Source: Pseudovirgaria hyperparasitica (taxonomy: Eukaryota). Taken from it: 63,680 bases of DNA. The DNA is taken from assembly GCA_010093815.1 (NCBI GenBank), contig ML996577.1, one strand, 5' to 3'. The notes beneath the pieces were generated by a model, which made no database searches, was not told where the DNA came from, and saw nothing but the letters and a program-made list of their open reading frames with translations. Below, in pieces: positions 2,591-20,534 of the stretch. The translations under genes and the position numbers were made by a program. How positions within the stretch are numbered: position 1 is the first letter of the stretch; every line of letters starts with the position of its first letter.

Positions 2591-2818
2591 TATAAGAATA
2601 GGGTTATTGGATAGTAGTATAGTTAGATAGAACAATAGGGTGTATTCTATTATAGAACAAATTACTACCGAACCCTTTTGGTAGGAATCCGAGAGTATAT
2701 ATATAAAGGGACGCCGATCTATCTAGCACGTGACTATTTACCGCCCTTTACGTCACCTCCTATCCCTATTAGCTAAGGTACGTATAGGTCGGGTCCTATC
2801 TAAGGCTAAGTCCTAATA
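2591..2818 (-). repeat. 3' LTR of element A (228 bp)
   Basis: Direct repeat of 9746-9954 + 17971-17989. The differences seen are C/T and G/A transitions, and the TG..CA termini are mutated to TA..TA. Confidence 0.95.
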
Positions 2819-3302
2819 ATTATCCCTTCCCTCTAGGAAGCTACCCTTAGCGACCTAGATTATTATCTATCCCTATATCTCTATCCTAAGTCTCGTAAGA
2901 CCTTAGTCGTTCTCTACGCTTTATCTTAGATACTTACCGATATTCGCCGATCTAAGATTTATATAAGCGTTTTCCTAATAAACTAAATTTTATCTATCTT
3001 AACTTCTTATATAGGTGAGATTACCTAATTAGGCCTAGCGTATCACGTGATATAATTAGATAAGCCTAGATACTATCTATATTAAAATCTTTTCTTAGAA
3101 ATATTCCTTTCTTTAAAAAACTTCTTAACTCTTTATAGAGTTTTTTAGATTATTAGGTATATTACCCGATCCTTATAGATATAGATTTATATAGATTTAC
3201 TATAATTTAGTGCGATTTACGTAATTTACTAATTTTCGTACCGTCCTTAGCTAGTAATAATATAATTCGTAATAATCCGTATAAATTAATAATAATCTTA
3301 AT

Positions 3303-4284
3303 ATGGTTTCCCGAAATCTTAATACTCTAAAGTAATTAGTACGGAAATAGGCGCCTTCGAATAATCCCTATCTCGTATACGTTACCGATATATTAAAAGC
3401 TATTAATCTATCCTAACCTAGGCCGGGCTCTAATAATCTAGCTATATATTATTATGGTTATTGCTTTCCGTTATATATTACTCATAGTAGTACTAAATCT
3501 ATAATATATAGCACTTACATGACTAAGAAGCGTTATTACTTATAGGTATTTAAGTAAGTTTAAAGAACTTTACGTAGATTTACTTATATTAGTATAGATT
3601 ACTACTAGGCCTCTAGTAACCCCTACTAATAAGGAGCGTAGTACTACCGATTATAACGCCTTAGAGAAGGCTTTCTACGAGCTATATATCTAAGGTAAGG
3701 GTTACGCCTAGGAGTACGATTCTAATAAGATCTATAAGGATTTATCGGAATCTACTATAGCTATTATTACCGTGATTACTAGGTAATATCGTTTTTCTTA
3801 AATTATTATAGATTCTTACTAATATATATTAATCTCTATAATAGTACTAAAATCTCTACTACTTCGGACTTCTTTCTATATACCGGCGATATTAGAATTC
3901 CTAGAAAAGGTTCTAGTAAAAAGGCTAAGGTTCCTTCCTCGCGCATGCTAAAGAGCCGTAAATTTAGGGAAGATAGCTCTAATCTAGAAGTTTCTATACT
4001 AAAGGTATATAGTTCTATACTAATCGTTAAATCTTTTCGCTAATTTATATAATTCTTAGCGTGCCCGCGCCGGTCCGTCCCTCTCCGTCCCGGGTCCTAC
4101 CGCTCCGTAGGTTTCTATAGAGGAGTTTATAGCTATAAGGCGCGCTATATAGAATTTATAGCGTCGGAATAAAAGGCTAGAGACTTATGTTATAAAGCTC
4201 TATACTATACTAAATAAGAACTAGTGGAAGGAATTAGATGTAACTATCGCGGTAATTAGTACTTCTACTCCTACTCTAACTTAA
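3303..4284 (+). pseudogene. Spliced antisense accessory gene of element A (Cys-cluster-like N-terminus, C-terminal coiled coil), RIP-degraded
   Basis: ATG at 3303. Predicted introns 3546-3597, 3783-3844 and 4005-4059 maintain one reading frame. Internal stops are TAA/TAG, restorable to CAA/CAG/TGG. Confidence 0.6.
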
Positions 4285-4699
4285 TTAGTTTAGATCTATA
4301 CTAATCGGTACTAATATGTCTCTTTTATCTAGCGTTTTTAGTTTTTCGGTTTTAATTTTAAAGCGATCTTACTTCTTCTAGATAGATTAGTACGAGTTTA
4401 TATAGATCTATATAGATCTTTATATTTTCTTTTAGCTTTCTTAATTTTATCTTTCTTTAATAATAACTTCTTTAATCTCTTTAGTAATCTATACCGATCT
4501 ATACCGATCGGCACCGATTTTCGATGTCTATTTCTCTTAGTAAATCATTTTTCTAAGTCTTTTTTTTAGTTAAATTTTTAAAGTTCTAAGTTCGAACTTT
4601 CTAAGGAAGTTCCTTAATTCCTTAGAATATTTTAAAGATCTATGTCTCTTTTACCTTCTTCCTTTTAGACGGCCGTCCTCGGCGCTAAACTATACTAAA

Positions 4700-7600
4700 A
4701 AACGTCGAATCGCCGTACTTTGGCATAATTCTCTGCGATTCTACGGCTTCCTTTACTAATCGCTACTTATATACTAATATCGCTGCTTTGCTAATGTTTA
4801 TTATAGGTTCCCAAGTATCTTCGTTAGGATTATATCCTTTCTAATGAATTTTATATAGCTACGTGCCATCTTCGGCGCGTTACTAGCTAAGTATCTACTT
4901 AACTTCGTAGATATCTATACCTTCTTACGTAACTACTTTATATAGTATCTATTCGGAACGATCTGGTAATAATAAGGCATGAAATGGCTCGAGAAGCGTA
5001 ATATAGAATATATTATATATCTTTAACGTAGGAGGGAGTTATAACTCAAACGCCTAGTTATTAATTACACGAGTAATCTTATATAGACCTATTATCGTAT
5101 AGTTAAGCTTCTTCTTTAGCCTAATACTACGAATATTCTTGCTATTTAGTAAAACTTTATCCCTAATATTAAAGATTATAGGTTTTCTACCCTTATTATA
5201 GTGCGATTTACTATAATTCGTAGTATCTTATAGTAACTTTATAACGCTTCTTTACGTTTAGAATAGTTCTATAGTAATTTCTATTACTTTAACGTTAGGT
5301 TATTCTACTTTAAACTAAGTCCCTAAGAACTACGTATTATAGTTCTAACCAAAGTTTACTTCGAACAGACTTACGTAGGTTAACGTATATCAGCTATTAT
5401 TATACGCGAATTCCGCGATATAGACTAACCTTACCTAGTTATCCTACTTATAGTTGTAATATACGCGTAAATACGCCTCGACTATCTAATTCTACCGCTC
5501 TATCTATCTATCTATTTATAGATAGAACGTAGTACTAAGTTTCCGCTTGATTCCTAGCGTATAGTAGAAATCCTTCTAAAATTTAGACGTTATCTACGGA
5601 CCTCTATCCAAAACTATACTATTTAGTATACTATAGAGCCGGACTACGTTACGGAGTAGTATATCTATAAGATCCGGTACTTAGATCGTCTTCCTTATAG
5701 GGATGTAGTATAATATCTTTATAAATCTATCTAGAACTACGAGTAAACTATTATAAATATACCTAGAATACTTACTTAGGGGTAGATCTATAATGAAATC
5801 TATCGATAATTCCTTCTATGCCTCCTTTAGCATAGGTAATAGCCTTAATTCGCTATATAGTAAGTGTCTATATACTTTCGTATACTGGTAAACGTTATAC
5901 GTTTTTATATAGTCTTTTATATATTTATAAAGACCCAGCTAGTCGTATGTCCTTCGGATTAAATCGACCGTTCTTATAACGCCGAAGTGCTCTACTAACA
6001 CGTAATCGTACTATTCCCTTAAAACATTAATTTATAAGCCGCCTTCCGGCACGTAGAGTCGGTCTTAGAAGTAGATCGCGTCTAATTATCGTTTCTACCT
6101 TAATAACTATGGCGGATCTATAGCGCTTCCTTTTATACTTATAACTTTCTTTACTAATATATCGGAATTCTAGATAGATTTAATTAAGTCTTTAAGGGTT
6201 TTCTTAGTTTCTTAGACATTTATTTAGATTACTTAATACCCGCTCTAATTCCCGCGGAGAATCGCCGAAAGTGTCCTAGCTTCTAGTATTCTATTAGATA
6301 ACTAGTCTTATAGTATCTAAAGTATAGTATAGTCTGAATTACACCGACTATCTACGTTATTCTATGACGATTTCTTATAATCTTTACGCCGCGATAGAGG
6401 ATTAGCTTTATTCTCTCTTCTAGCTTTATATAAGATTTTAAAGTTAAATATTAATATCTACTTAGCCTAATATACTTATTAGTAATTAAGGACCTTAGTC
6501 GACATAAAGTAACGTAGATTTATATAATCTAATAATAATTCGATCTAATGTGCGGAGCCTTCTAAATAATATTGCTATTGCTTAAAACTCTCGACGATTA
6601 TAAGTAGTTCCTAGTCGTGCGTGTTATAACACGTCTCTATATCCGCCATTTTATAGGAAAAGAAAGCGACCGGGTGCTATTATACCTTATCTTTTATATC
6701 TTTATATAGTTAACTAATAATTCTAGTAATTACAAATCCTAACGCATTAGTTTCAACCTAAATATACTTCTTAGAATCAAAATACCTAAGAATCGGCGTA
6801 GTTATAAAGTAATTCTTTAACGATCGGAACGTATCTCGCGCTTCCGGCGTTAACTATATCTCGACCGACTTAGCTTTACGCTATACTCGCCTACTTATAG
6901 GGATTTTACCGCCATTCTCTATGAGTTTATTAAGCGGCGCCGTAATTTATAAGAAGCCTATAATAAATTTACGATAATAGTTCACGAAACCTATGAATAT
7001 TCTAATTTAACGTATAGTAGTAGGTTCTAGCTATTCTATAATGGTCTTTACACGCTCCGGCTCCATTTTTAGGCCGCTATATATTATAATAAAGCCAAGA
7101 AACCTAACTTCTTATTAGTAAAACTCGTATTTAGATAATTTTACGTAGAGTTTATACTGCCTTAGACGATTTAGCACCGATTTCACGTGTTCTTTATAAT
7201 TCTATATACTATCGGAGTAAATTAGTATATTATTAAGATAAACTACGTAAATCACGTTAAGTAATTCTACGAGTATAGTATTAATATATCCTTAAAACGC
7301 TCCTAGCGTATTTATTAGCCCGAATGGCATAATAGTATACTTAAAATAACTATATCTAGTCCGAAATATAGTTTTCTACTTATCTTCGTGACGAATTTAA
7401 AGTCGGTAATATATATCTTATAAATCTAGCTTTATAAAGTACTTTGCCTTCGTTAATTAGTCTAAAGATTTACTAACTAGCGGTAATAGATAACGATTCT
7501 TCTTAGTTACCGTATTTAGTGTCTAATAGTTAACGTATAGACGTAAACTTCCGTCTTTCTTCTTTATAAAGAGAATAGATACGCTAGCCGATAACGTACT

Positions 7601-9720
7601 ACGATGTATCCAGCCTCTTTTAAGGTATTCTTTAATATATTTATAAAGAACTTCGAGTTCTAGTCTCGAAAGTAGGTAAAGTAGACTATAAGGAACGTCT
7701 ACTCCCTCTTCGAGCTCGATCTTTAGCTTATACGGCCTGTGATTAGGGAGAAGTAACGTATCTCCTACCGAAAATATATCCGTATACTATGAATATACGT
7801 CGGGTAGCGTGTCTTCGCCCTAATTATTACTATTATCCTTATCTTTATCGACGATTAATAAGGACGTAAGATAGATTAGCGACGATCGGGTCCGCATGGC
7901 GAGGTTCCATGCCTCCTTACTAATAGTTACGACTTACTAGTATAATTTACTACGGTGTTATCGGAATATTAATATCTCCTTCTAAAAATTAAGGATGGGG
8001 TTTAGGCGTCTAAGCTAAGGTATCCCTAGAATCATATTCTATTAGCTAATATTAGCCACGATGAATTTATTAGATATCTACTATTTTATTATCTTCGAGT
8101 TATGAACTTCGTAATTCGTTATAGCTTTACCTAAAGTTCTAACTTCATGTCTATTAACTATAATAGTTCGGCTAACTTTACCAAGATTATACGATAATCT
8201 ATACTCCTTTATAAGAATCGATAAAATATAGTTATCTTCTATACTAGTATCCACGAGGGCCTATATAGTTTTATTACTATTTACTATAGGTAACGATACT
8301 TTTAGTAAAATTAGGTCTTTACTCGCCGGAAGGCGCTACGGCTCCTCCTAAGTATATATAATTTAGCTAAGAACGCGGTTAGGTCTTGTGTACTAGCCTA
8401 TTCTTTTTTCGGATTCTTATAGTTAGGCGAAATATATTCTATTTCTCTATACTTATAGTAATGAAGTGCGCTATAATCCTACTATTTTACGATAGGCGTT
8501 ATATTTAAGCCTATATCTTATCCTTTTCCGCGTTAAGAAGCACCGCCTCGATTATTTTAGTGTCCTCTTAACGCGTTTCTACCCCGATTTACGCTCTTCT
8601 AGCGCTAATCGCGGTAAGGTTACTCTTAATTAAACGTATTTAATCGACCTCGTTTCTAACCCGTATAGGGTTCGTCGGTTTTACCTAGAGAGCCGCGTTC
8701 CTTAAGGATGTGATAGTATTTATTAGCTTTCTCCTCTAATTCGTATAGATAGTTAAAACTTAATAATACTATTTCTAGTCTTTCGCGGATTAACGGAAGT
8801 AGTACTTCGCGAAACTAGAATATACGAATATTTTCCTATAGCGTAGAGATATTATTCTATAGGTTTTAGAGGTATTATAGTAGTTAAGTAGATGTCTAGT
8901 TCGGTCGTTATGCTACGCTTCTTAACTTAGATAGTACCTTTCTTTTACGTTCTCTATCCGTTCCGAGGGTGTTTAGTATAAATATAGCTAAATATTCCTA
9001 GGTTATCGTAGATAGTGGCTGCACTTCCTTCTATCTATCCTATTAATCGCGGGATTATAAGTCTAGGTATCATTCTCTAAACGAAATGCGTTATACTTTA
9101 GTAGAAAAGAGTAGAGGGTTATTGAGGAAGTACTTTTCGTAGTCTCTCTTCTAGTCTTTCTACTCCTTTTAGTTCTTCCCTATAAATATAGTCGGGTCTT
9201 TAGATTTTAGTATATCTAGGGAAGGAGTAGGGTAAATCGGTAACGAAGCGGCTGGGTATACGGTGGATTATCGTAACTCTAATAGTAGGTGAACTAATTC
9301 TGCCTAAATTGGTATAGGAAGTCGTCTACCTACTATCGTTCGGCGTAGTTCTTTAAGAGACTCCTTAAGTTCTCGTCTCTTTACGAGGAGTTTTGCGCGT
9401 TCTATCTATTCTTTAAGGGTTTAAATCTCTCGAGCCTAATTCGCGACGTATTCCTAAAGTTTAGCGATAGTTTATTATAATACCTCGCGTGGCTCCGCCA
9501 CGACTTATTATCCGGCTTTATATTATTAGAAGTTACTCGGCGTATCTACTATTTCTTCGTCTAAAAGCTCCGTGATTTAGTCTAATATTTCTACTTCTTA
9601 GTTAGAAACGGCCGGGATTAATACCGATTATAGAGGATCCCTATTATTTAATATAGTGTTACTTATCTCTATAGTAGATCGTGTCGACCTTCTCGGTTCT
9701 AGTTAGACTATCTTAACTAT
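4700..9720 (-). pseudogene. gag-pol of element A (RIP-degraded)
   Basis: Zinc knuckle near 8420-8460, protease ALVDT(G) near 8245-8260, RT ~7000-7700, RNase H ~6500-6800, integrase ~5300-6000, chromodomain ~4790-4920. Boundaries are approximate. Confidence 0.85.
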
Positions 9721-9745
9721 AGTACTATATAGGAAGTAATTCGAA

Positions 9746-9954
9746 TATAAGAATAGGGTTATTAGATAGTAGTATAGTTAGATAGAATAATAGGGTATAT
9801 TCTATTATAGAACGAATTACTACCGAACCCTTTCGGTAGGAATCCGAGAGTATATATATAAAGGGACGCCGATCTATCTAGTACGTGACTGTTTACCGCC
9901 CTTCACGTCACCTTCTATCCCTATTAGCTAAGGTACGTGTAGGTCGGGTCCTAC
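9746..9954 (-). repeat. 5' LTR of element A, main part (the remaining 19 bp are at 17971-17989)
   Basis: Matches 2591-2799 and is broken at CCTAC by element B. Confidence 0.95.
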
Positions 9955-10194
9955 TGTTAGGGCTGACACCAGGATGGACTCAACTAGACCACTATGGTCT
10001 AGTACGGTCCGTGACAGGTGGACCCAGGTTAAGCCAGCTAGAATAAGCGAGACCACTATATAAGTAGACCGCACATACTTAATTCCTACTCTTTAGGAAT
10101 CAACCTTATTAGGAGAGTAGACTACCCTTTTAAATATATTCCCGAATCCTCCTATGACCTATTAGACTGCTATCCTACGTCTATAATCCTTACA
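9955..10194 (+). repeat. 5' LTR of element B (240 bp)
   Basis: TG..CA termini; direct repeat of 17726-17965. Confidence 0.95.
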
Positions 10195-10235
10195 TTTTGA
10201 TTCCTCTTTATATAGCACGACGGCAGTTCATAGGA

Positions 10236-13200
10236 ATGGCTCTAACCACTCGTCATAACACTCGTGGCACCGCCTCTTATAGTAGACCTTCTCCTAACCT
10301 GAACGAGGAGAATAGTCTACCTATAACTACCCCCACCGATAACTATACCTTATAGGCTATCGCACCGATAACTCGCACGATATTCCGTGTAACTATAGAA
10401 GATATTATAGAATACGAGGATGGAGTCCATCACACTCCATCTCGGTCTAGTTCAAACCATACTAGACCTAACCTTAACACGAGGCCAGACCTTATTAACG
10501 TTGACGAGTTAATCCGTTAGAATCGTCTAACGTTAACCACACCTTATAACGACGTATATACTAGACTACACGAAGAGAGGTAACGATAGGTTTAACTCGA
10601 GCAATAACTACGCGAACTCGACGAAGCTCGAGAACGCACTACGAGACTTAAAGCTGCATTACGCGCTTTAGTTCTAGTAACGACCAATCTATATTTATAT
10701 GGACCCACACCAACTGAAACGATCCATCCTAGTCCACTACTATCCCAATTGCCCCGACCTAAGAAACTACCTCACTTCGATGGTAAAAGTAGAAAGAGTT
10801 TCCACGCATAGGCTCACTAATATAGCCGATTCTTCTATCTATTCACGAACGACAGCGATAAAATTAGATTCGCCTAGAACTACCTCGACCCGACGCCTTT
10901 AGAACGTTAGATGGCATACCGAATCGAATATTCTAAGGATGCCTATAACTAGGACACGTTCACCGAATTTCTCCTCTAATATTTTGGCGATAGGGCTAAA
11001 CGACGCGACTAGGCCCAGGGCTATATCTTCGAGACTCGATAACGAGATAATTAGTTACCGTTATAACTCCTTGAATACCTTCGGCCCCTCTAGAGAGAAG
11101 CCGAAGAAGATCGTATGATTCGATAGTGCGACGACTTTAAACGGTCCCTCGCCCTAAATGTAAAGGACCGTCTCGACCTTACAACGATAATCTCTATAGA
11201 CCTCTAAGCTCTTATAAACCTTACGGAGCGACACTAGCGTATAATAAATAATTAACGCCGCGCTGGTGTACGACTGTCTCTAACGATCCAATCTAACGCA
11301 AAATCGTCTAACTAAAACCGATTTAGTAACAGATCTCGCGGGACGTCACGAGGCCACTACCACGCCTCGAATTCAAAACCACGCGGATCGTATCGTGGAT
11401 CTCCCTACTAATCGACACATCGAGATACGAGGACCGACTCGCATAAACGATCTAAAGTCACTTACTACACCTATGGTAGAATAGACTATATAGCACCTGA
11501 GTGCCGTTCGGGGAAGCCACCGAGTGCTAATATAACTAACTAACCAGTTATATGCTATAAGTGCTAGTAGCTAGGACATATCGCGCCTAACTACCTAGCA
11601 TAGAACATAAAAAACTAATAGCCTACGAGAAACCCTCGCGACTTATAGGCGCGACCATAATAGAGGGGTAATCCTCCAAATAGTACATCGAACTATAGGC
11701 TAGACCCATCGAGGTCCCTCGTGGATAATATTAGACTATAATGCTCGATAGTAGGTCGGCCACTAACGTTATGTCGACCTAACGAGCACGAGAACTTAAC
11801 GCCGACATCTAAGCTCTAATAAGTACCATGTTCCATGGCATCGACGGTCCCATTAAGTCACACGGCACCTACACTATCAAATACGGTATCTAGGACAGCG
11901 GAGGGAAATGGAAACTCTACTGCTTAACCTTTATCGTGGTAGACAGTCCCTTCGACATGATCCTAGGTATGCCGTGGCTTAAGAAATATAACCTAAAACT
12001 AGACTTCCTTAAGAAGACAGCTGGCTGGCGTATGAACCCACCTTAATAGGAACTAGTGTAGCTTATTAACGACGAATAATTCTAGAAAGATTACGAAAAG
12101 GCGATCTCTACTATCTACGTGCTCTTACTCACGTAAAATGGTAAGCTTAATATTAAAGTGGACGAAAACCTACCACATTAGTATAAAATGTACTAACATG
12201 TCGCGTCAGCGATCGATTCCTCCGAACTACCTTAATACTAACCTACCGACCTTACTATTGATCTCGAAGACGGCCAGTAACCTTTACATGGACCTATCTA
12301 CCCTCTTTTAGAACCTAAGTTATAAGCCCTTCGAGAATATATCGAAAAGAACCTTACGCGAGGGTGGATTAGGCCTAGTGTGTCCCTAGCCGGAGCTCTA
12401 ATCCTCTTTGTAAAGAAGAAGGATAGGAGCCTCCGTCTATATGTCGACTACCGTGGCCTGAATAACATCACGCGAAAGAATCGTTACCTACTACCTCTTA
12501 TCTCCGAGTCTATTAATAGACTAGGGCGCGTAAAGATCTTTACTAAGCTCGATCTACGTGACGCCTACTATCGCCTTCGTATTAAGGAAGGCGACGAATG
12601 GAAAACGGCTTTTAGGACCCGTTATGGACACTTTGAGTATACCGTGGTCCCTTTTGGACTAACTAACGCGTTAGGCACCTTCTAAGCGTACATTAATAAC
12701 GCGCTAGTAGGCCTACTCGACACGACATGTATCGTGTACCTAGATAACATCCTTATCTTCTTAGATAACGAGGAGGAGCATATCTAGCACGTACGTGTAG
12801 TCCTAGACAGGCTAGAAAAGCATAAGCTATATATTAAGCTATCCAAATGCGAGTTCCATTAGGACCATGTTAACTTTCTTAGCTTCGTTATTACTAATCA
12901 AGGTGTAACCATAGAGAGAGATAGAGTTACTACTATTATGGACTGGCCTAAACTAAAATCCGTTCGAGATATACGTGTCTTTATTGGCTTCGCCAACTAC
13001 TACCGAAAATTTGTTAAACACTTCTCCCGTTTAGCCGCACCACTTAATACGCGCACTACTACCACCGACTCGTCTATTACGGTCCGTGGTAGACAGAAAC
13101 AGCGTAATATTAAATTATAACCTATTAAATTAACTAAGGTCGAAAGAACATCCTTCGAGAAGATTAAAGAAGCATTCCTAACCGCCCTATTGCTAGTGTA

Positions 13201-15400
13201 CTTTAACCCGACCAAACCTATTCGCGTCGAAACTAATGCATTAGGATTTGCAATCTCGGGTATACTCTCCCAGCCTAGACCAATAGAGTCTAAAAAGGTC
13301 TAATGGCATCCAGTTGCGTTCTTCTCGCGCAAGATGGCCGACGTCGAGACTAGATATACTATTTATAACCAAGAGCTGCTAGCAATAGTAGAGTCGTTCA
13401 AGTAGTGGCGATATTATCTTAAAGGTGCCATGCATGACGTTAAGTTACTAACTAATCACCATAACTTAAAGGGGTTCATAAGCACGACGGTTTTAAATCG
13501 TCGATAGGTTTAATGGGCTAAGTAGCTTATAAATTTCTACTTTGTAATCCACCATTAACCTAGAAGTATAAACCCAGCTAATAGGATGTTAAGAAGACCT
13601 AACTATGAAGAAGGCGCCTAGGATTATAGTGGCCATAGGGTCCTAGAGTAGCTGTAGGCCCAACTCTTAAGGACGAGGTTAGATAATAAGTTATCCGACG
13701 ATTAGCGAGATGCTAACGCCGATGCCGGTAATCGAATTTATAAGACCGAAGCCGGTGACCAAAGACGCGGTACCGAAGTCCCTAGCGAGCCATTTATCGG
13801 CGCTGTTAGGGAGGGCGATGGTGCCCGGCGTGTATGTTAAGTAGACCTTGCCTAGTTAATCGTGGATCTATAAAAGATAGACCCGATAGTTTTAAAGTTA
13901 CGTAAAATGTAGTAAGATAGGTTATTACGGACCGAAGTGGACTATAAGTAGACCTTCGTGGACGGCTTACTCCACTACGATGGAAAGTACTATATGCCGA
14001 CGGGCAACGCACGATTCACCGTAGTTAGCCGATACCATGACGCTAACCTAGTAGAATATTTCGGGTATGTACGCACCCTAAGCTCGATTCGTTAGTACTA
14101 TTTTTAGGAAGATATACCTAAGTACGTCGAAGAATGGATAGCTACTTATCCGATTTATTAAAGAATAAAGGCACCTAGGCATAAGCCATATGGGAACTTG
14201 CAGCCTCTACCAGTCCCCCTCTTTATATGGGAAGATGTTACTATGGATTTCATAGTTGACTTGCCTCCAAGCGAGATGCTTAGGATAAGTTATGATTCAA
14301 TTCTTATTATCGTGGATAGACTTATAAAGATGTCTAGGTACGTCCCTATGTGGAAGATGATCACATTAAAAGAACTAGTATAAGTATTCTAGAATAAGAT
14401 CATTAAGGTCTATGGTATACTAAAAAGGATCGTTACGGACCGAGGGAGTACATTCACGTCTAAATTCTGGACGTCATTCTGCGAAATGGCCGGTATGAAT
14501 AGAAACATGTTAATAGCATTCCATCCACAAACAGATGGTTAGACAGAGTGATAGAACCAAACGCTCGAGGCCTACCTTCGTGCATTCTATAATTTCGAAT
14601 AAGACGACTGGGCCTCTCTACTAAGCATAGTAGAATTCGCGTATAATAATAGTCGTTATAGTATAATAGGTGTCACGCCCTTCTAGGCGAACCTAGGACG
14701 TAGTCCAAGGATAGGTTTCGAACCTTACACGGTCTAGTTCGACCGAACGATAGATTTTAACGTCCACGCGCAGGAACTAGCGATTAAAATCTTTAAAACC
14801 GCACGCAACTATCACGTAATAATCTAGTAAGCGAATAAGTCGTATACAAAGTACTATAATAGGTTAGTTAAAGATCAAGCGTACGAGGAGGGAGACGAAG
14901 TCCTCCTTAACATCTGTAATATACAAACGTCGCGAGTGAACAAAAAGCTCGATTATAAAATGGCTGGTCCCTTCCGAATCAAACGTCGTATCGGTATAAG
15001 AGCCTACGAGCTCGACCTAGGAAACGACATGAAAGTCCATAATGTATTCCACGTCTCATTGCTTAAAAGGTTTCGACCTAACGTGTACAAACGCACGAAC
15101 GTGCAATTACACTCTATTATACCCTAAGATGGACTAGACGTGTACGAAGTGGACTATATTGTCGAACATAGGCTCGACGAGAACGGTGTCTAAAAGTATC
15201 GAATCCGTTGGAAGAACTACACCGAGGATGAGGATACCTAGGAACCTACGGTGCATATCTTAAGTGCCGCGATGGCTATATATAAACAGAGGTTATAGGA
15301 TAACACGTTACTACCGTAAACCTAGCGCCGTCGGGGCCGTCGCAAAAAGAAGAAGGATGCCGTGGAAAACGAAGTGTCGAATCACGAATCCCAAACGCAC
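10236..15400 (+). pseudogene. gag-pol of element B (RIP-degraded)
   Basis: Two CCHC knuckles at ~11460-11600, AAAAAAC at 11609-11615 directly before the gag stop, RT ORF 12380-12685, RNase H ~13200-13600, integrase 14198-14700, chromodomain ~15140-15260. End is approximate. Confidence 0.88.
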
Positions 15401-15933
15401 ACTAGGAAAACTCTATAAGGCAGCCCCACAATTCAAGCGATATACGGTTACCAAACGCGAAGAAAACGTAAATAACCGTTATAGGCACGCGACGCGATAT
15501 ATCATAATAGAATAACATAGAGAAGTCCAGAATGGACTAATATGGACCATTACACACGAGAAGAACATGGGACTAAGAAACCAAAAAGGTACCCCACTAC
15601 GGAATTAAACTCGTGATATATAATATAAAAGGTTAGAGTACCCGAACCGATGACCACTAGGCCACTGGTTTAGGTGCTCTAATATAATTTAGAGAGATAA
15701 ACCAATTTATATACGATGCCCACACTTAAGTGACTTAAAGGAAATCAGAACCTAAAATTCAATAGTCATAGAATAAATAAGAACGCACACAATATCATTA
15801 AGTTAAGAATTAAATTACTAGAAAACTGGTAGACGGGTATCTAAACGGTCTAAAAAGGACCAAAACGGATAGAAACCAGGCAGATAGAGCCAACACACAC
15901 TATATAGAAACCCTAGTAAATAGAGCCATAGAG

Positions 15934-17238
15934 CTACTCCTCCATCTTATTATTACTCTTAGAGCGTAGCGAACGAACTAACCGAGTAATAGAGCGACGG
16001 AGGTTAGAGACCTTATCCTCTAGAGTAACCACGCGCTCGGTCAGAGCCTAGTAAGACGACGACTAAGCGCTAGAGCGGAGCAACTAGACCTAAAGTTAGC
16101 TAACGCGGTCTAGAATAATCTAGAATAGAATATATACCCTCTTACGAGGTGACTTAGAAGGAGAACTAGTAGATCTCTTGCGAGACCCGTTAGTAGCACG
16201 AGGTGGGCGGGAAGGAACAGCACGAATCTCTTCTGCGGCCTTAGTGGCCAAAACCGACTCCCTAGAATAGGTAGCCTAAGCGCTAGGAATCTCGCGGCGA
16301 CTGAAAATTATAAGCTGAGGTTAATGATAATTAACGGTTTCTAAACTCACACTTTAATGACCTCTAGGAAGAGCTTATAGCGCTCCCTAAACTCCCTGCG
16401 CATAGAAGCCAGGTGACTGCTAGAACCGCCGAGAGTCTCGCGGACGCGAAGATCGTTATATACATCTTACACACGAATAGGAACCTAAAAACGCATTAGC
16501 ATGGACGACTTTAGATTACCCTAGACCAAAACAGCCTAATAGACTCACCTAAAGATAAACTTTACCGAGGACGGCATAGCGGCGGTAGCGGGTAGGGAGC
16601 TTAAAGATTAGGCGTATAGGCCCGTCGCGGTTAGTAGAGTAGTAGCTAATGCTAGAGTTAGAGCGGAAGAGATATTTAGAGCCGGTGGCGTGAGCCTTAA
16701 TGTACTTAAAGCACATCGAACCGTAGTTCGCCGTTTTCCTATGGCGCAAACCGCGACCACGTTTAGTATCTTTGGCGACCTAGGCCTTATTATTACTAGG
16801 GCTGGGTTTAGAGCGAATATTAAGGTCCTAAAAGGACCTAGAGCGACTAAGTCGGTCTATATTAGACCGAAAAGAGGAACGGCGTTTAGAGCAAGGCGGC
16901 GAAGGCGTGAACTCTCGATTATCGTCTACGACGAGATCTTCTTTATCCTCTAAAGGAGGTAGAGTAGACAGGCGGCGCGAGTAGGTGTAGGTAGGCTTTA
17001 TAGCCACCTCTTCCGCAACACCAGTACTAGGATCACCTGGATTAGAGCGACTAGTGGCCACGTCAGTGGTAATAGTAGTAGTAGCCTTAGCTACCTTCTT
17101 CTCTAACTTGGAGCGCGCCTTCACACTACTACGATGAGTGGATTTTTTAGCCGGTATAGCCGGGGTAGAGGTAATCCCTTTAGAGCGGGTCTTGCGAGAG
17201 GAGGAGGCAGGCTTGGGAACAGGACTAGTATTAGACAT
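15934..17238 (-). pseudogene. Spliced antisense accessory gene of element B (basic N-terminus, Cys-cluster-like motif, C-terminal coiled coil), RIP-degraded
   Basis: ORFs 17238-16828 and 16749-16549 share a frame. Canonical minus-strand introns at 16548-16485 (GTGAGT..GCTAAT..TTTAG) and 16350-16301 (GTGAGT..CAG) keep the frame to about 15934. Confidence 0.7.
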
Positions 17239-17725
17239 CTATACACACACGTTAGCTAGAGATCTGAGAGTGGAATACTCGTTCAGCCTCAAAGGCGATT
17301 AAAGAAGCTAAATTAGTGACCGCAACAACGCGAATAGATTATATAGGACCAGCTCTAACGAAAATAGACTACTCTAGACCCGAACGGATCTAAACTAAAG
17401 GAGATAGTATACGAATTAACGACTTACCTTAAGAGTAAGGTGGATGTACTAGAGAAGAAAATTTAGAATAAGAAAACTAAATATAAGCTTAGTTAATGTG
17501 GCGGTTATATGACCCGCGGAGCTACCTCTAAGGTAGCAGCCATGAAGTAAGGGATAAGCGCGTGCATAAATAAAAGTGAACTGGAGCTCAAGTTCACCGA
17601 TGTAAAGACTATCGATAACGTCACATAGATTCAATTGGATGCGCGCATAAACATGACGCTTTTGGAATTACGGATTTACGTATAGCTGAGTACTTCGGGG
17701 CGAAGCATAAAAAGAAGAAGGATAT

Positions 17726-17965
17726 TATTAGGGCTAACACTAGGATGGACTTAACTGGACCACTATGGTCTAGTACGGTCCGTGATAGGTGGACCTAGGT
17801 TAAGCCAGCTAGAATAAGCGAGACCACTATATAAGTAGGCCGCATATACTTGATTCCTACTCTTTAGGAATCAACCTCGTTAGGAGAGTAGACTACCCTT
17901 TTAAATATATTCCCGAATCCTCCTATGACCTGTTAGACTGCTATCCTACGTCTACAATCCTTACA
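17726..17965 (+). repeat. 3' LTR of element B (240 bp)
   Basis: Direct repeat of 9955-10194 with transition differences. Confidence 0.95.
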
Positions 17966-17994
17966 CCTACCTAAGGCTAAGTCCTAACAATATC

Positions 17995-18470
17995 TATTAT
18001 CTACCCTTAAGGTAAACTACCCTAGGTATATAATAATAATTATTATAGATAATCTTGCACTTTATACGAACTAATAGATTAAGCTACTTATACTTAGCGC
18101 TAGCTATATTATACGGTATATACTACCGTACTTACCTAACTTTAATTTTATTAAGCTTATATAGGTAGTAATAAAGGTATAGATTTATAGATAGTATACC
18201 TAGATATATTAGTAATCTCGAACTTTTAAGAACTTTCTCTATATTATATTTATATATAGCTATACTAATTAGTAGACTCTATACTTCTTTAAATATACTA
18301 TAGATAGATACTATATTAACGAGACGCTCTAGTAGAAGGTAGTCGCTAATTTAGAGAGGTTTAGATAAGATAGAGGTGGTAGAGAGATTACTAAAGTTAA
18401 GGAGATTAGGAGACTTTTTTATAAACTTATTAAGTAACTTACTCGTTACTAACTCGCCGATAAGTAAGTT
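17995..18470 (+). pseudogene. DDE transposase, 3' part (RIP-degraded)
   Basis: In frame with the 5' part once element A and one TSD copy are removed. Asp codon at 18048, then 34 codons including LPYLPNFNFI (de-RIP: PPYSPDFNPI), then the Glu position at 18153, giving DD34E. Confidence 0.8.
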
Positions 18471-18536
18471 ACTTAGCTAGCTAGTAATAGTCTATATATA
18501 TATCTATTTTAGGCACTATTCATTAAGTATATAGCC

Positions 18537-20430
18537 TTAATATATAAATATATACTTCTAAATATACTCTAAGAAATACTATACCATCCCTATCTAAATA
18601 CTAGTTATACTAGTTATAGTAAACGCCTAGAGCGAGGACGCCGCCTTACTTACCTTAAGTTACTCCTTATACTTATAAAGGTATAGACGTGCGTCTAGTA
18701 GAATACTAAGTAGAATATCTACTATCTTCGCGGCTTTATAATAAGTAGTTCTAGGCTAAGTTATCTTCTTAATATAGCGGTAAGTATAGTAGTTATTATC
18801 TATATATAGTCTTAATTTATATATTCTAGCCCTCGTCTTATTATAAGTCTCTATCTCCTTACGCTATTTAAGAGCTAATAGTACTATATCCACCTAGTAA
18901 CGCCCTAGTTATACTAGACTACTAAAGGTTTCTATAACTCGTGTCTAAGGGGGTGTTTTATAACGAGTCTTACGAGTTAGTAAATAATTTAAACTATAAG
19001 TAGATAGAGAGCGAGATTAAGGTTAAGATTAAGGAAACATAGGTATCTATATAGGTATTCTAGGATTAAATCTATAATACTATAATTCTATCTAACGAAG
19101 TAGTTAAGTATATATAAGCTTATCTTTATTATCTTAATAATATCTTACTACCGCCTCCTCGTGCTTAATTATTATCTATCTTATCTACTTATCTTAAAGC
19201 CTCGTATTCCGCTCCTTACGATCTAACTTAGCCTTCTTATATTATAATCTCTTTATTTTAAGGCGCTCGAGTATAGAAGTAGTACTTCCGTTAACGGCGG
19301 TTAACGAGGTACTAGTTCTACTACTAGTTCGAGACTTCCTTAGGCATGGTTAAGTAATAATCTTATAGAATAAGTCTATTAACGGCTTATCCTTAGTTAC
19401 CCCTTAAATACTATTAATAATATTATTAGCCTATAGCTCTAAGATAGTCTTATCTATCTTATAGTAGAGTATTCTATTAGGTAATATAATCTTATAGTAC
19501 TAACCTTAGTAGTTTATATATATCGCCTTACTATACTAGAGCTTACTCTAAATATTATTAATAATAACTTCTTAGATACGGTCTCGCTATCTTTGCTCCT
19601 CCTATAATTTAAATAGCTATTTTAAGTATCCCTTAAGGTTCGGATCTATAGGTAATAATACTAGACTAGTAGAAACTATACTAGTAAGTAGTAATAGCGT
19701 AGGAGACTTCAAATTAGATACTATAGCCTTCTTACATCCTAGTAGCTAATAAGACTTATAGATAATAGTATTCTCAAAGATAAGGAATATAGCCTCTAGT
19801 AGATCCTTTCTTACTAGGCTATAGATCTTATTAAGGAAGGTAAGAAGCTTATCCTAGTTATCTAGACTCTAGTCTAGAAGTATTAACTATTTCCTAGTAT
19901 AACTAGATATTCTAAGCTTTATAGTAAAGCCTTAAGTCTTAAATAGCTAGTTATTAGTGCCGAGAGCCTTATTAATTAACTACTAAATCTCCTCCTTATA
20001 TAACTCCTTCTTAAACTTATACTAGGCTTCCGTCTTTAGTAATATAGCCTTAATAATCTTTCTAAAACTATCTACTCTAAGTTACTAATTTATATAGATA
20101 GACTATATTATCTTATTAAGAGCCGCGTTATTATTCTATAGGTTCTCCTTCTTCTTCTTCTTAACTATATCTCTATAAACTAAAGTAGAGTTATTAGTAT
20201 TATTAAGTATATTATTTAGTAAGGCTAGAGAATCGCTTAATAAGGGTACGTTAGAGGGCGCTAGTAGTATATTTTTATACCTTACTACTATCTTTATAGC
20301 CCTTAATACCTTATCTATACTATACTAGAGTGCCTTTAATATAGATATATATAGCTATAGCCTAGGAGGTGGTAGTAGAGGTTCTATTAAGTTATCCTAT
20401 CCGAATTAAATACCTTTACGCTACTTAGAA
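18537..20430 (-). pseudogene. Putative second gene of the DNA transposon, function unknown, RIP-degraded
   Basis: Minus-strand segments read by hand (20160-19770 and 18800-18537) give protein-like frames with scattered RIP-type stops. Boundaries are approximate. Confidence 0.45.
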
Positions 20431-20534
20431 GGTATAATAGATAGTATAAAATAGTTAAAAAAACACTAATATATGGCTAATATCGTATAATACTAATATA
20501 TAATAGGTATTTTAATAGGTATATGAGTATTCGT

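Follow-up and report, generated by a model that had tools for sequence, protein, structure and literature searches.

The stretch of DNA analysed here, 63,680 nucleotides of contig ML996577.1 in the Pseudovirgaria hyperparasitica assembly GCA_010093815.1 (hereafter the window), contains on its plus strand a full-length Ty3/gypsy chromovirus, element B, with a target site duplication (TSD), two long terminal repeats (LTRs) and a polypurine tract (PPT). Between the chromodomain end of its pol gene and its 3' LTR (17726-17965) there is a gene on the minus strand, split by introns and full of stop codons. It is highly probable that this region is a copy, inactivated by repeat-induced point mutation (RIP), of a real accessory gene of one fungal chromovirus clade. 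That the gene as such is real, conserved, borne by the element, spliced and antisense we hold with slightly greater confidence still, while a function of its product as a zinc-binding nuclear regulator is possible but rather doubtful. The parts of the gene are, in the order of reading, the following.

17239-17708, minus strand: 470 nt from the ATG to the PPT, likely the antisense promoter and 5' untranslated region (no coding periodicity, p 0.23)
16549-17238, minus strand: exon 1, 230 codons, a basic Ser/Thr/Pro-rich N-terminal part and then the Cys/Tyr motif (open reading frame (ORF) and period-3 signal)
16549-16713, minus strand: decayed cysteine motif C-x2-Y-x38-Y-x2-Y-x6-Y-L-(TAG), ending at the exon 1 donor (motif-plus-donor scan)
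16485-16548, minus strand: intron 1, 64 nt, phase 0, GTGAGT..GCTAAT..TAG (splice signals and relatives)
16351-16484, minus strand: exon 2, 134 nt, with one TAA where the relative L001 has Gln (periodicity and exon alignment)
16301-16350, minus strand: intron 2, 50 nt, phase 2, GTGAGT..ATTAAC..CAG (splice signals; phase 2 also in the relatives L001 and L003)
16138-16300, minus strand: exon 3, 163 nt, basic, ending in ..SPRKR (best exon against L001; the L003 counterpart ends in ..SPAKR)
16090-16137, minus strand: intron 3, 48 nt, phase 0, GTATAT..GCTAAC..TTTAG (third intron of phase 0 in L001 and L003)
15934-16089, minus strand: exon 4, 51 codons and a stop, with a heptad (leucine-zipper-like) tail at 15967-16047 (ORF)

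The gene starts with the ATG at 17238, immediately preceded by an in-frame stop, and comprises 380 codons with eight internal stops, all TAG or TAA, and zero frameshifts. An earlier note, made from the letters of the window, had placed it between pol and the 3' LTR of a chromovirus, with which the Pfam, LTR and PPT coordinates agree. The start and the introns 16548-16485 (phase 0) and 16350-16301 (phase 2) that it gave are present in the sequence, and so are the basic N-terminus, the heptad tail and the motif, which reads CFKY, 38 residues, YRRYAVLGKVYL and a TAG, directly followed by the first donor. Its model of two introns was however incomplete. Both are real, but a third (16137-16090), newly added here and containing four stops in its 16 codons, had been missed, and with two introns the gene has 11 internal stops. 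Exon 1 holds three TAG stops, one of them as its last codon. In the tail, the d positions of four consecutive heptads are Leu and the a positions are V, V, I and L, and all eight a/d positions over 28 residues are hydrophobic.

The letters of B themselves carry a coding signal that follows this model. The third codon position that it predicts is the A-poorest one in five of five exon segments (A 0.06-0.13, T about 0.35-0.49), with period-3 chi-square p values of 7e-9 and 2e-5 for the two segments of exon 1 and 0.026, 2e-5 and 0.039 for the others, and the periodicity shifts phase with exon 2 and shifts back with exon 3, as the model predicts. The flanks are without periodicity, both in 482 nt upstream (p 0.23) and in 434 nt downstream (p 0.4). 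A strict pattern for fungal introns (GTRAGT, a branch site, YAG, length up to 100 nt) has 20 occurrences when the two strands of the whole window are counted, introns 1 and 2 among them. Stop counts by themselves are weaker evidence: those of the three frames of exon 1 are 3, 8 and 35, and parts of exons 3 and 4 have a second frame roughly as free of stops. RIP makes the stops TAG and TAA in every frame, so one could imagine a non-coding 3' region that happens to read open after some imaginative splicing. Such a coincidence has practically no probability, as the periodicity fits the model in every segment, a motif scan (see below) is without hits elsewhere, and intact genes at the matching place in relatives already contradict it.

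These relatives were found by a metagenome scan with the stop-free stretch of the reverse transcriptase of B, which gave 78 related loci at 49-76% identity. The end of the integrase is reached in 51 of them, 34 of which have at least 1.5 kb beyond it; the locus L016, with its fragmented pol matches, stands outside this count. The closest loci have a gap of at least 2 kb after the chromodomain, with Cys-rich minus-strand ORFs, and an antisense gene at the matching place is found in five relatives (L001, L002, L003, L011 and L016), intact in the first three. The claim of the earlier note that the gene is real and belongs to the element is thereby supported. In L001 the gene has 266 codons in four exons (6844-6551, 6506-6343, 6295-6154 and 6102-5902), the introns between them (44, 47 and 51 nt) having ACTGAC or ACTAAT as their branch site, and in L003 it has 296 codons, with an alternative in-frame acceptor possible for intron 1. 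The intron phases 0, 2, 0 are common to B, L001 and L003, and an intron of phase 0 two codons after the last Cys is found in all five relatives, as in B.

The relatives also settle the matter of the strand. The plus frame that mirrors exon 1 is fairly open in B, with few stops and an open stretch of 113 codons at 16612-16953, and period-3 alone cannot separate the strands; the choice between them therefore needed evidence from outside B. In both L001 and L003 the antisense frame is the only one of six without internal stops, and the spliced frames have period-3 p values of 2e-10 and 3e-12 with third-position A at 0.16 and 0.13, and the coding strand is thus the antisense one. A sense third ORF after pol, of which the minus frame would merely be the mirror image, is very improbable: the plus frame in question has about 18 stops across the gene, minus-strand GT..AG signals mark both limits of the phase shift in exon 2, and the reverse frames of L001 and L003 each have at least three stops, against the terminal stop only in the antisense frame.

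All six carriers of the gene fall into one clade of the pol tree, which holds 10 of the 57 tips and has a support of 1.0 (FastTree on query-anchored rows, 57 of 79 used, the 22 rows with less than 60% coverage being dropped). The gene has the features of the aORF-3R class of PMC7264820: in B and in five related loci it occupies the interval from pol to the 3' LTR and is read from the strand that does not encode gag-pol, and it is kept across relatives. In a metagenome protein collection there are 16 related ORFs, mostly of the subfamily to which L002 belongs.

The protein contains a cysteine module, in which five Cys are invariant when the unmutated versions of L001, L002 and L003 are aligned, and exon 1 ends in all three with CxxC, five to seven residues, a further Cys, two residues and the donor; these two residues are L or V followed by E or A, and then comes the phase-0 intron. 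The first CxxC lies 35-49 residues upstream of the second (35 in L002, 37 in L001, 38 in B and 49 in L003). L001, L002 and L003 carry Cys at each of the five matching positions, including those that are Tyr in B, which agrees with the proposal in the earlier note that the Tyr residues had once been Cys. MAFFT misaligns the motif of B because Tyr does not pair with Cys, and the mapping of Tyr to Cys in B rests on the spacing and the donor as an anchor. The three outcomes that the note had named as fatal to its reading, a consensus with Tyr or His at these positions, a consensus lacking a continuous ORF, or the region absent from other family members, were none of them encountered.

We scanned the 78 loci and the window (737,307 bases, both strands, all frames) for the motif with Cys or Tyr allowed and the donor required. 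The eight overlapping hits fall in six elements and every one is antisense in the gap between pol and LTR, with none elsewhere; L002 was also found by a pattern with Cys only. Two RIP-mutated members of the L002 subfamily, L011 and L016, have Tyr at two and six, respectively, of the eight Cys positions of the L002 module (counted by eye), and in L016 the Trp is turned to a stop. The decay from Cys to Tyr recurs in many contigs among the 16 collected ORFs, and one mutated L001-like copy has Tyr at the first Cys.

In the L002 subfamily (L002 6580-7529, minus strand, with L011 and L016) the Cys module and the first intron are kept, and after the module there is a different second half with two introns, both of phase 0, and without the heptad tail. 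This suggests that the Cys module is the conserved core and that the remainder is exchangeable.

The same kind of decay can be read from the pol gene of B, and the effects that the earlier note had attributed to RIP, Cys to Tyr and Gln to stop, are borne out there. Cys of the relatives is Tyr in B at 5 of 10 positions compared with L001, 7 of 13 with L003 and 3 of 9 with L002, and is kept at one, two and three positions, respectively. Gln of the same three relatives is a stop at 7, 11 and 14 positions and is kept at 4, 6 and 4. The antisense product of B has no Gln or Trp left and eight stops; L001 has eight Gln, and L003 has 13 Gln and two Trp. Four Tyr at the five invariant Cys sites together with eight stops fit the mutation intensity in B pol. 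Since four of these five Cys have become Tyr through RIP and every Gln or Trp codon has become a stop, the copy in B is dead. The H2C2 zinc finger of the B integrase (13950-14160) reads ..ATYPIYX.. where the family has CxxCQ, and it is a second site in this copy where RIP made CxxC-Q into YxxY-stop.

Several points weigh against the region being the remnant of a conserved gene. B is one copy (n=1), read letter by letter, and its splice junctions, transcript and promoter are all predicted from the DNA sequence alone, while the relatives are metagenome contigs. The scan pattern was written after B, L001 and L003 had been seen, and the independent finds are only L002, L011 and L016. No motif was found in four tips of the carrier clade, of which L009 ends 1.5 kb past pol, L020 has a gap of about 1 kb and L032 and L037 are heavily mutated. 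In L002 the end of exon 1 is alike, but by eye it has two introns and a different second half. The total loss of Gln and Trp in the antisense gene of B is slightly above expectation, as pol suggests that about one third would survive (p ~0.06). The likeness in sequence within the family is very low. The gap region of B gave 0 tblastx hits against the 78 loci, tblastn with the L001 protein gave nothing credible, with members of the family going undetected by BLAST, and a RIP-collapsed DNA alignment of the gap regions stayed at the shuffle level, compared with 382 vs 34 in a pol control. With exons as anchors, B against L003 (z 0.9) and L001 against L003 (z -0.9) do not score above shuffles, and the homology with L003 and L002 therefore rests on position, strand, intron placement and Cys pattern. 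The exon-by-exon alignment of B with L001 did rise above chance (z 3.0, a score reached in 0 of 500 shuffles), best in exon 3. The antisense gene evolves far faster than pol, keeping its place, strand, introns and Cys pattern.

The exons of B match no Pfam family at E <=0.1. For exon 1 of B, 0 of 1137 word-sharing candidates passed as homologues and 0 were confirmed among 533 pattern matches in metagenome contigs; the sole hit among 1.84 billion representatives, a tandem-repeat protein of 677 residues, consisted of eight weak stretches and was judged spurious. The hits in a set of 5.8 billion proteins are metagenome ORFs, near-copies of exon 1 of L001 and L002. That no homologue ties the gene to other retroelement genes could mean that it is a passenger, a fragment of a host gene captured in reverse by the ancestor of the clade and functionless for the element, with frames that are still open since the capture was recent. 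Its third codon position, A-poor and C/T-rich, unlike that of pol, could reflect a host origin, and its presence within the carrier clade is patchy. But no host paralogue of exon 1 of B was found among the 1.84 billion representatives or in the 5.8-billion-protein set, and carriers whose reverse transcriptases are only about 70-76% identical to that of B still have intact spliced frames, of 266 and 296 codons. The intron positions and the Cys pattern have moreover been kept while the rest is beyond detection by BLAST, which points to selection on the protein. We therefore find a passenger improbable.

Another possibility is that the antisense RNA itself is what matters, as a partner in double-stranded RNA or through transcriptional interference, and that the protein is secondary. 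In B, L001, L002 and L003 the gene and pol point towards each other, with 220-420 nt between their ends, and related gypsy elements of Botrytis are described as strong sources of small RNA (PMC8365987). A role of the RNA only would leave the kept frames, the invariant Cys and the codon periodicity unexplained, and we give it a slightly smaller chance than the passenger, although roles of RNA and protein are not exclusive.

An accessory gene of the element is the reading we prefer, and the parts of its predicted protein can be described. The products are basic (pI 11.0, 9.1 and 8.4) with short basic clusters, and consist of an N-terminal part that is basic and disordered (and long in B), the CxxC...CxxC-x5-7-C module, a basic middle and the heptad tail. 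The tail, present in B, L001 and L003, is predicted to be helical, with 8, 6 and 6 of 8 a/d positions hydrophobic. The last exon of L003 has only coiled-coil-type Pfam hits, below their cut-offs, and a predicted homodimer of the 37-residue tail of B scored 0.03. The four Leu at heptad spacing in B made a bZIP protein a candidate, which was rejected as neither B nor the relatives match a bZIP profile.

The consensus of the Zn2Cys6 proteins is CX2CX6CX5-12CX2CX6-8C, with the CxxC pairs about 15-25 residues apart. At least six Cys, a CxxC-x5-7-C that fits the second half of this consensus, a helical or coiled-coil part further on and fungal hosts are what the antisense product shares with them. 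The earlier note had taken the motif for a stretched Zn2Cys6-like cluster, and as membership of that family (Pfam Zn_clus) this fails: the distance between the pairs is 35-49 residues, the middle Cys falls out of alignment, and no Pfam family matches exon 1 of L001 or L003 at E <=1, Zn_clus included. This last result lends no support to zinc binding or to any fold, and neither does a profile search of the PDB, which gave no match (best E 0.56). The Cys module was predicted by AlphaFold from an alignment of three rows with a pLDDT of 43.1, which is too low to use and speaks for no particular fold. In the ESM Atlas there was no usable hit for a 76-residue piece of B, and exon 1 of L003 found small unnamed proteins only, scoring 0.85 at most.

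How the gene might work can be outlined from these parts. The antisense mRNA would start at an internal promoter in the 470 nt between ATG and PPT or in the 3' LTR, both being candidates; by eye there is a TATATAA about 100 nt 5' of the ATG, a motif type common in RIP-mutated DNA. The introns run antisense to the genomic RNA of the element; they stay in that RNA and are hence copied into each new insertion. The protein would bind zinc through the Cys module, pair through the heptad tail, enter the nucleus and bind nucleic acid or chromatin there, and could in this way tune the expression or the silencing of its own element. We suggest only tentatively, as an idea that is more likely wrong than right, that it is a fast-evolving zinc-binding coiled-coil nuclear protein that controls transcription of the element or blocks the genome defence of the host. 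If so, the defence that is targeted would be RNA silencing, heterochromatin or RIP-linked silencing, and the gene would be a retrotransposon counterpart of HBZ of the human T-cell leukaemia virus HTLV-1, with a rapid divergence that reflects an arms race with the host.

HBZ is encoded antisense near the 3' LTR of HTLV-1, has a spliced transcript and is a bZIP protein with basic regions and a leucine-zipper end. The gene of B resembles it in being a spliced antisense gene by the 3' LTR whose product has basic regions and a zipper-like end, and HBZ is the closest working model, but as an analogy only, since HBZ belongs to an animal retrovirus, is a bZIP protein and has no Cys module.

Closer in host is brtn, an antisense gene of the Boty-like elements of Botrytis and Sclerotinia, which passages in PMC8365987 and PMC7264820 credit to Zhao et al. 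2011 (Virology 417:248). The earlier note knew of no characterised fungal equivalent; brtn is one that has been published. As far as the consulted parts of the sources go, Boty has, like B, gag, reverse transcriptase, integrase and a chromodomain (PMC4227169), brtn is an extra antisense gene between pol and the 3' LTR (PMC7264820), and a transcript resembling BRTN is reported in Monilinia (PMC5987419). The two genes are compared here by description only, and among the matches to the antisense-gene family there is no named protein. In the literature searched we found no spliced Cys-rich antisense gene in a fungal gypsy element; Zhao et al. 2011 and Figure S1 of PMC8365987, which has more extra ORFs from Botrytis, were beyond reach. 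The Ty3/gypsy elements Grande, RIRE2, Retand and PvRetro13 of plants have antisense additional ORFs in the same place and orientation, kept in most copies of a family and with a role that is unknown, according to the portion of PMC7264820 consulted. They differ from the gene of B in their hosts, and no likeness in sequence was found here. The gene of B has three introns with conserved phases, and the word "intron" occurs 0 times in the text of that review as accessed (PMC7264820).

In plants, LTR retrotransposons with extra antisense genes were first described decades ago, and fungi had supplied a single case; none of these genes has a known function. Plant elements with such ORFs are mostly not chromoviruses. 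The new family adds a clear signature, a Cys module that ends at a conserved intron, and the conserved splicing only makes sense if an antisense mRNA is made. As natural intact members have been found, the question of what such a gene does becomes testable, and they can be expressed and assayed in fungi that are easily handled. A decayed, Tyr-rich motif in RIP-mutated DNA can moreover be read with the aid of unmutated relatives, which is of help in annotating the AT-rich compartments of fungal genomes.

The element that carries the gene has the following parts.

9950-9954, plus strand: 5' TSD, CCTAC, identical to the five bases at 17966-17970
9955-10194, plus strand: 5' LTR (TGTTAG...CCTTACA), direct repeat with 17726-17965
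11894-15127, plus strand: pol, with protease remnant, reverse transcriptase, RNase H, integrase and SH3_Tf2-1 (Pfam)
15143-15268, plus strand: C-terminal chromodomain of pol (Pfam Chromo, E 1e-8, 35.4 bits, cut-off 25.1)
17709-17722, plus strand: PPT, AAAAAGAAGAAGGA, just 5' of the 3' LTR
17726-17965, plus strand: 3' LTR (TATTAG...CCTTACA), repeat of the 5' LTR
17966-17970, plus strand: 3' TSD, CCTAC, identical to 9950-9954

A repeat scan found two LTR pairs in the window, 2591-2798/9746-9953 and 9952-10194/17723-17965, the latter being the direct repeat of B, with 94.5% identity over 238 nt. B has the TG..CA ends of the LTRs (TA for TG in the 3' LTR), the TSD of 5 bp and the PPT of a chromovirus, and its pol has the order reverse transcriptase, RNase H, integrase and C-terminal chromodomain. 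The pol is one single frame throughout, interrupted by RIP-type stops, 51 in the 1145 codons of a read-through that reaches 15330. RVT_1 (E 1.6e-29), RT_RNaseH (1.2e-24), SH3_Tf2-1 (1.4e-16), Integrase_H2C2 (3.8e-6) and Chromo are above the Pfam cut-offs, and a match to rve is below its own.

B sits inside an LTR of an older, more mutated and different chromovirus, element A, on the opposite strand. The insertion site is uninterrupted in the other LTR copy of A, at about 2795-2822, and the joint of an empty site, 9949 to 17966 with five shared letters, is found in contigs of the sequencing runs X1 and X2. The empty site and the TSD imply that B has transposed as one unit, including the roughly 2.2 kb from the end of pol to the PPT in which the antisense gene lies. 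Short contigs at least 80% alike to B number 16,925 in X1 and 6,737 in X2, and they span 30 of 30 bins of B, the antisense gene region included; the two runs are probably the source sample, and the summed depth of contigs is not a copy number. C>T (232 places in X1) and G>A (189 places) make up most of the differences from B. Hence the family of B has multiple copies, is affected by RIP, and is represented in the region of the antisense gene as well. The runs X3 and X4, which share the species label of the probable source, have only five and one contigs, respectively, on 9700-18200; perhaps another strain has few or no copies of the B family, or perhaps X3 and X4 are a different type of run.

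Element A, a minus-strand element at 2591-9954 and 17971 to about 17993, has suffered far more RIP than B (GC 0.30-0.34). In the roughly 1.9 kb from its chromodomain (about 4757) to its LTR (2798) there was no likeness to the antisense gene of B (best E 0.12) and no clear coding periodicity. Among the related loci, L026, an unrelated chromovirus, has a sense ORF after pol (8064-8591, plus strand) with the motif W-x-x-C-Y-D-D-x-C-x-V-H twice, possibly an extra ORF of a different kind, or else gag from an adjacent element. Both A and B are part of an AT-rich, RIP-like block at about 2-20.5 kb of the window (GC 0.29-0.48), with adjoining genic DNA at about 0.5 GC, and 3' of B, beyond the short remainder of the A LTR, a further AT-rich stretch continues from 18000 to 20500 (GC 0.29-0.39).

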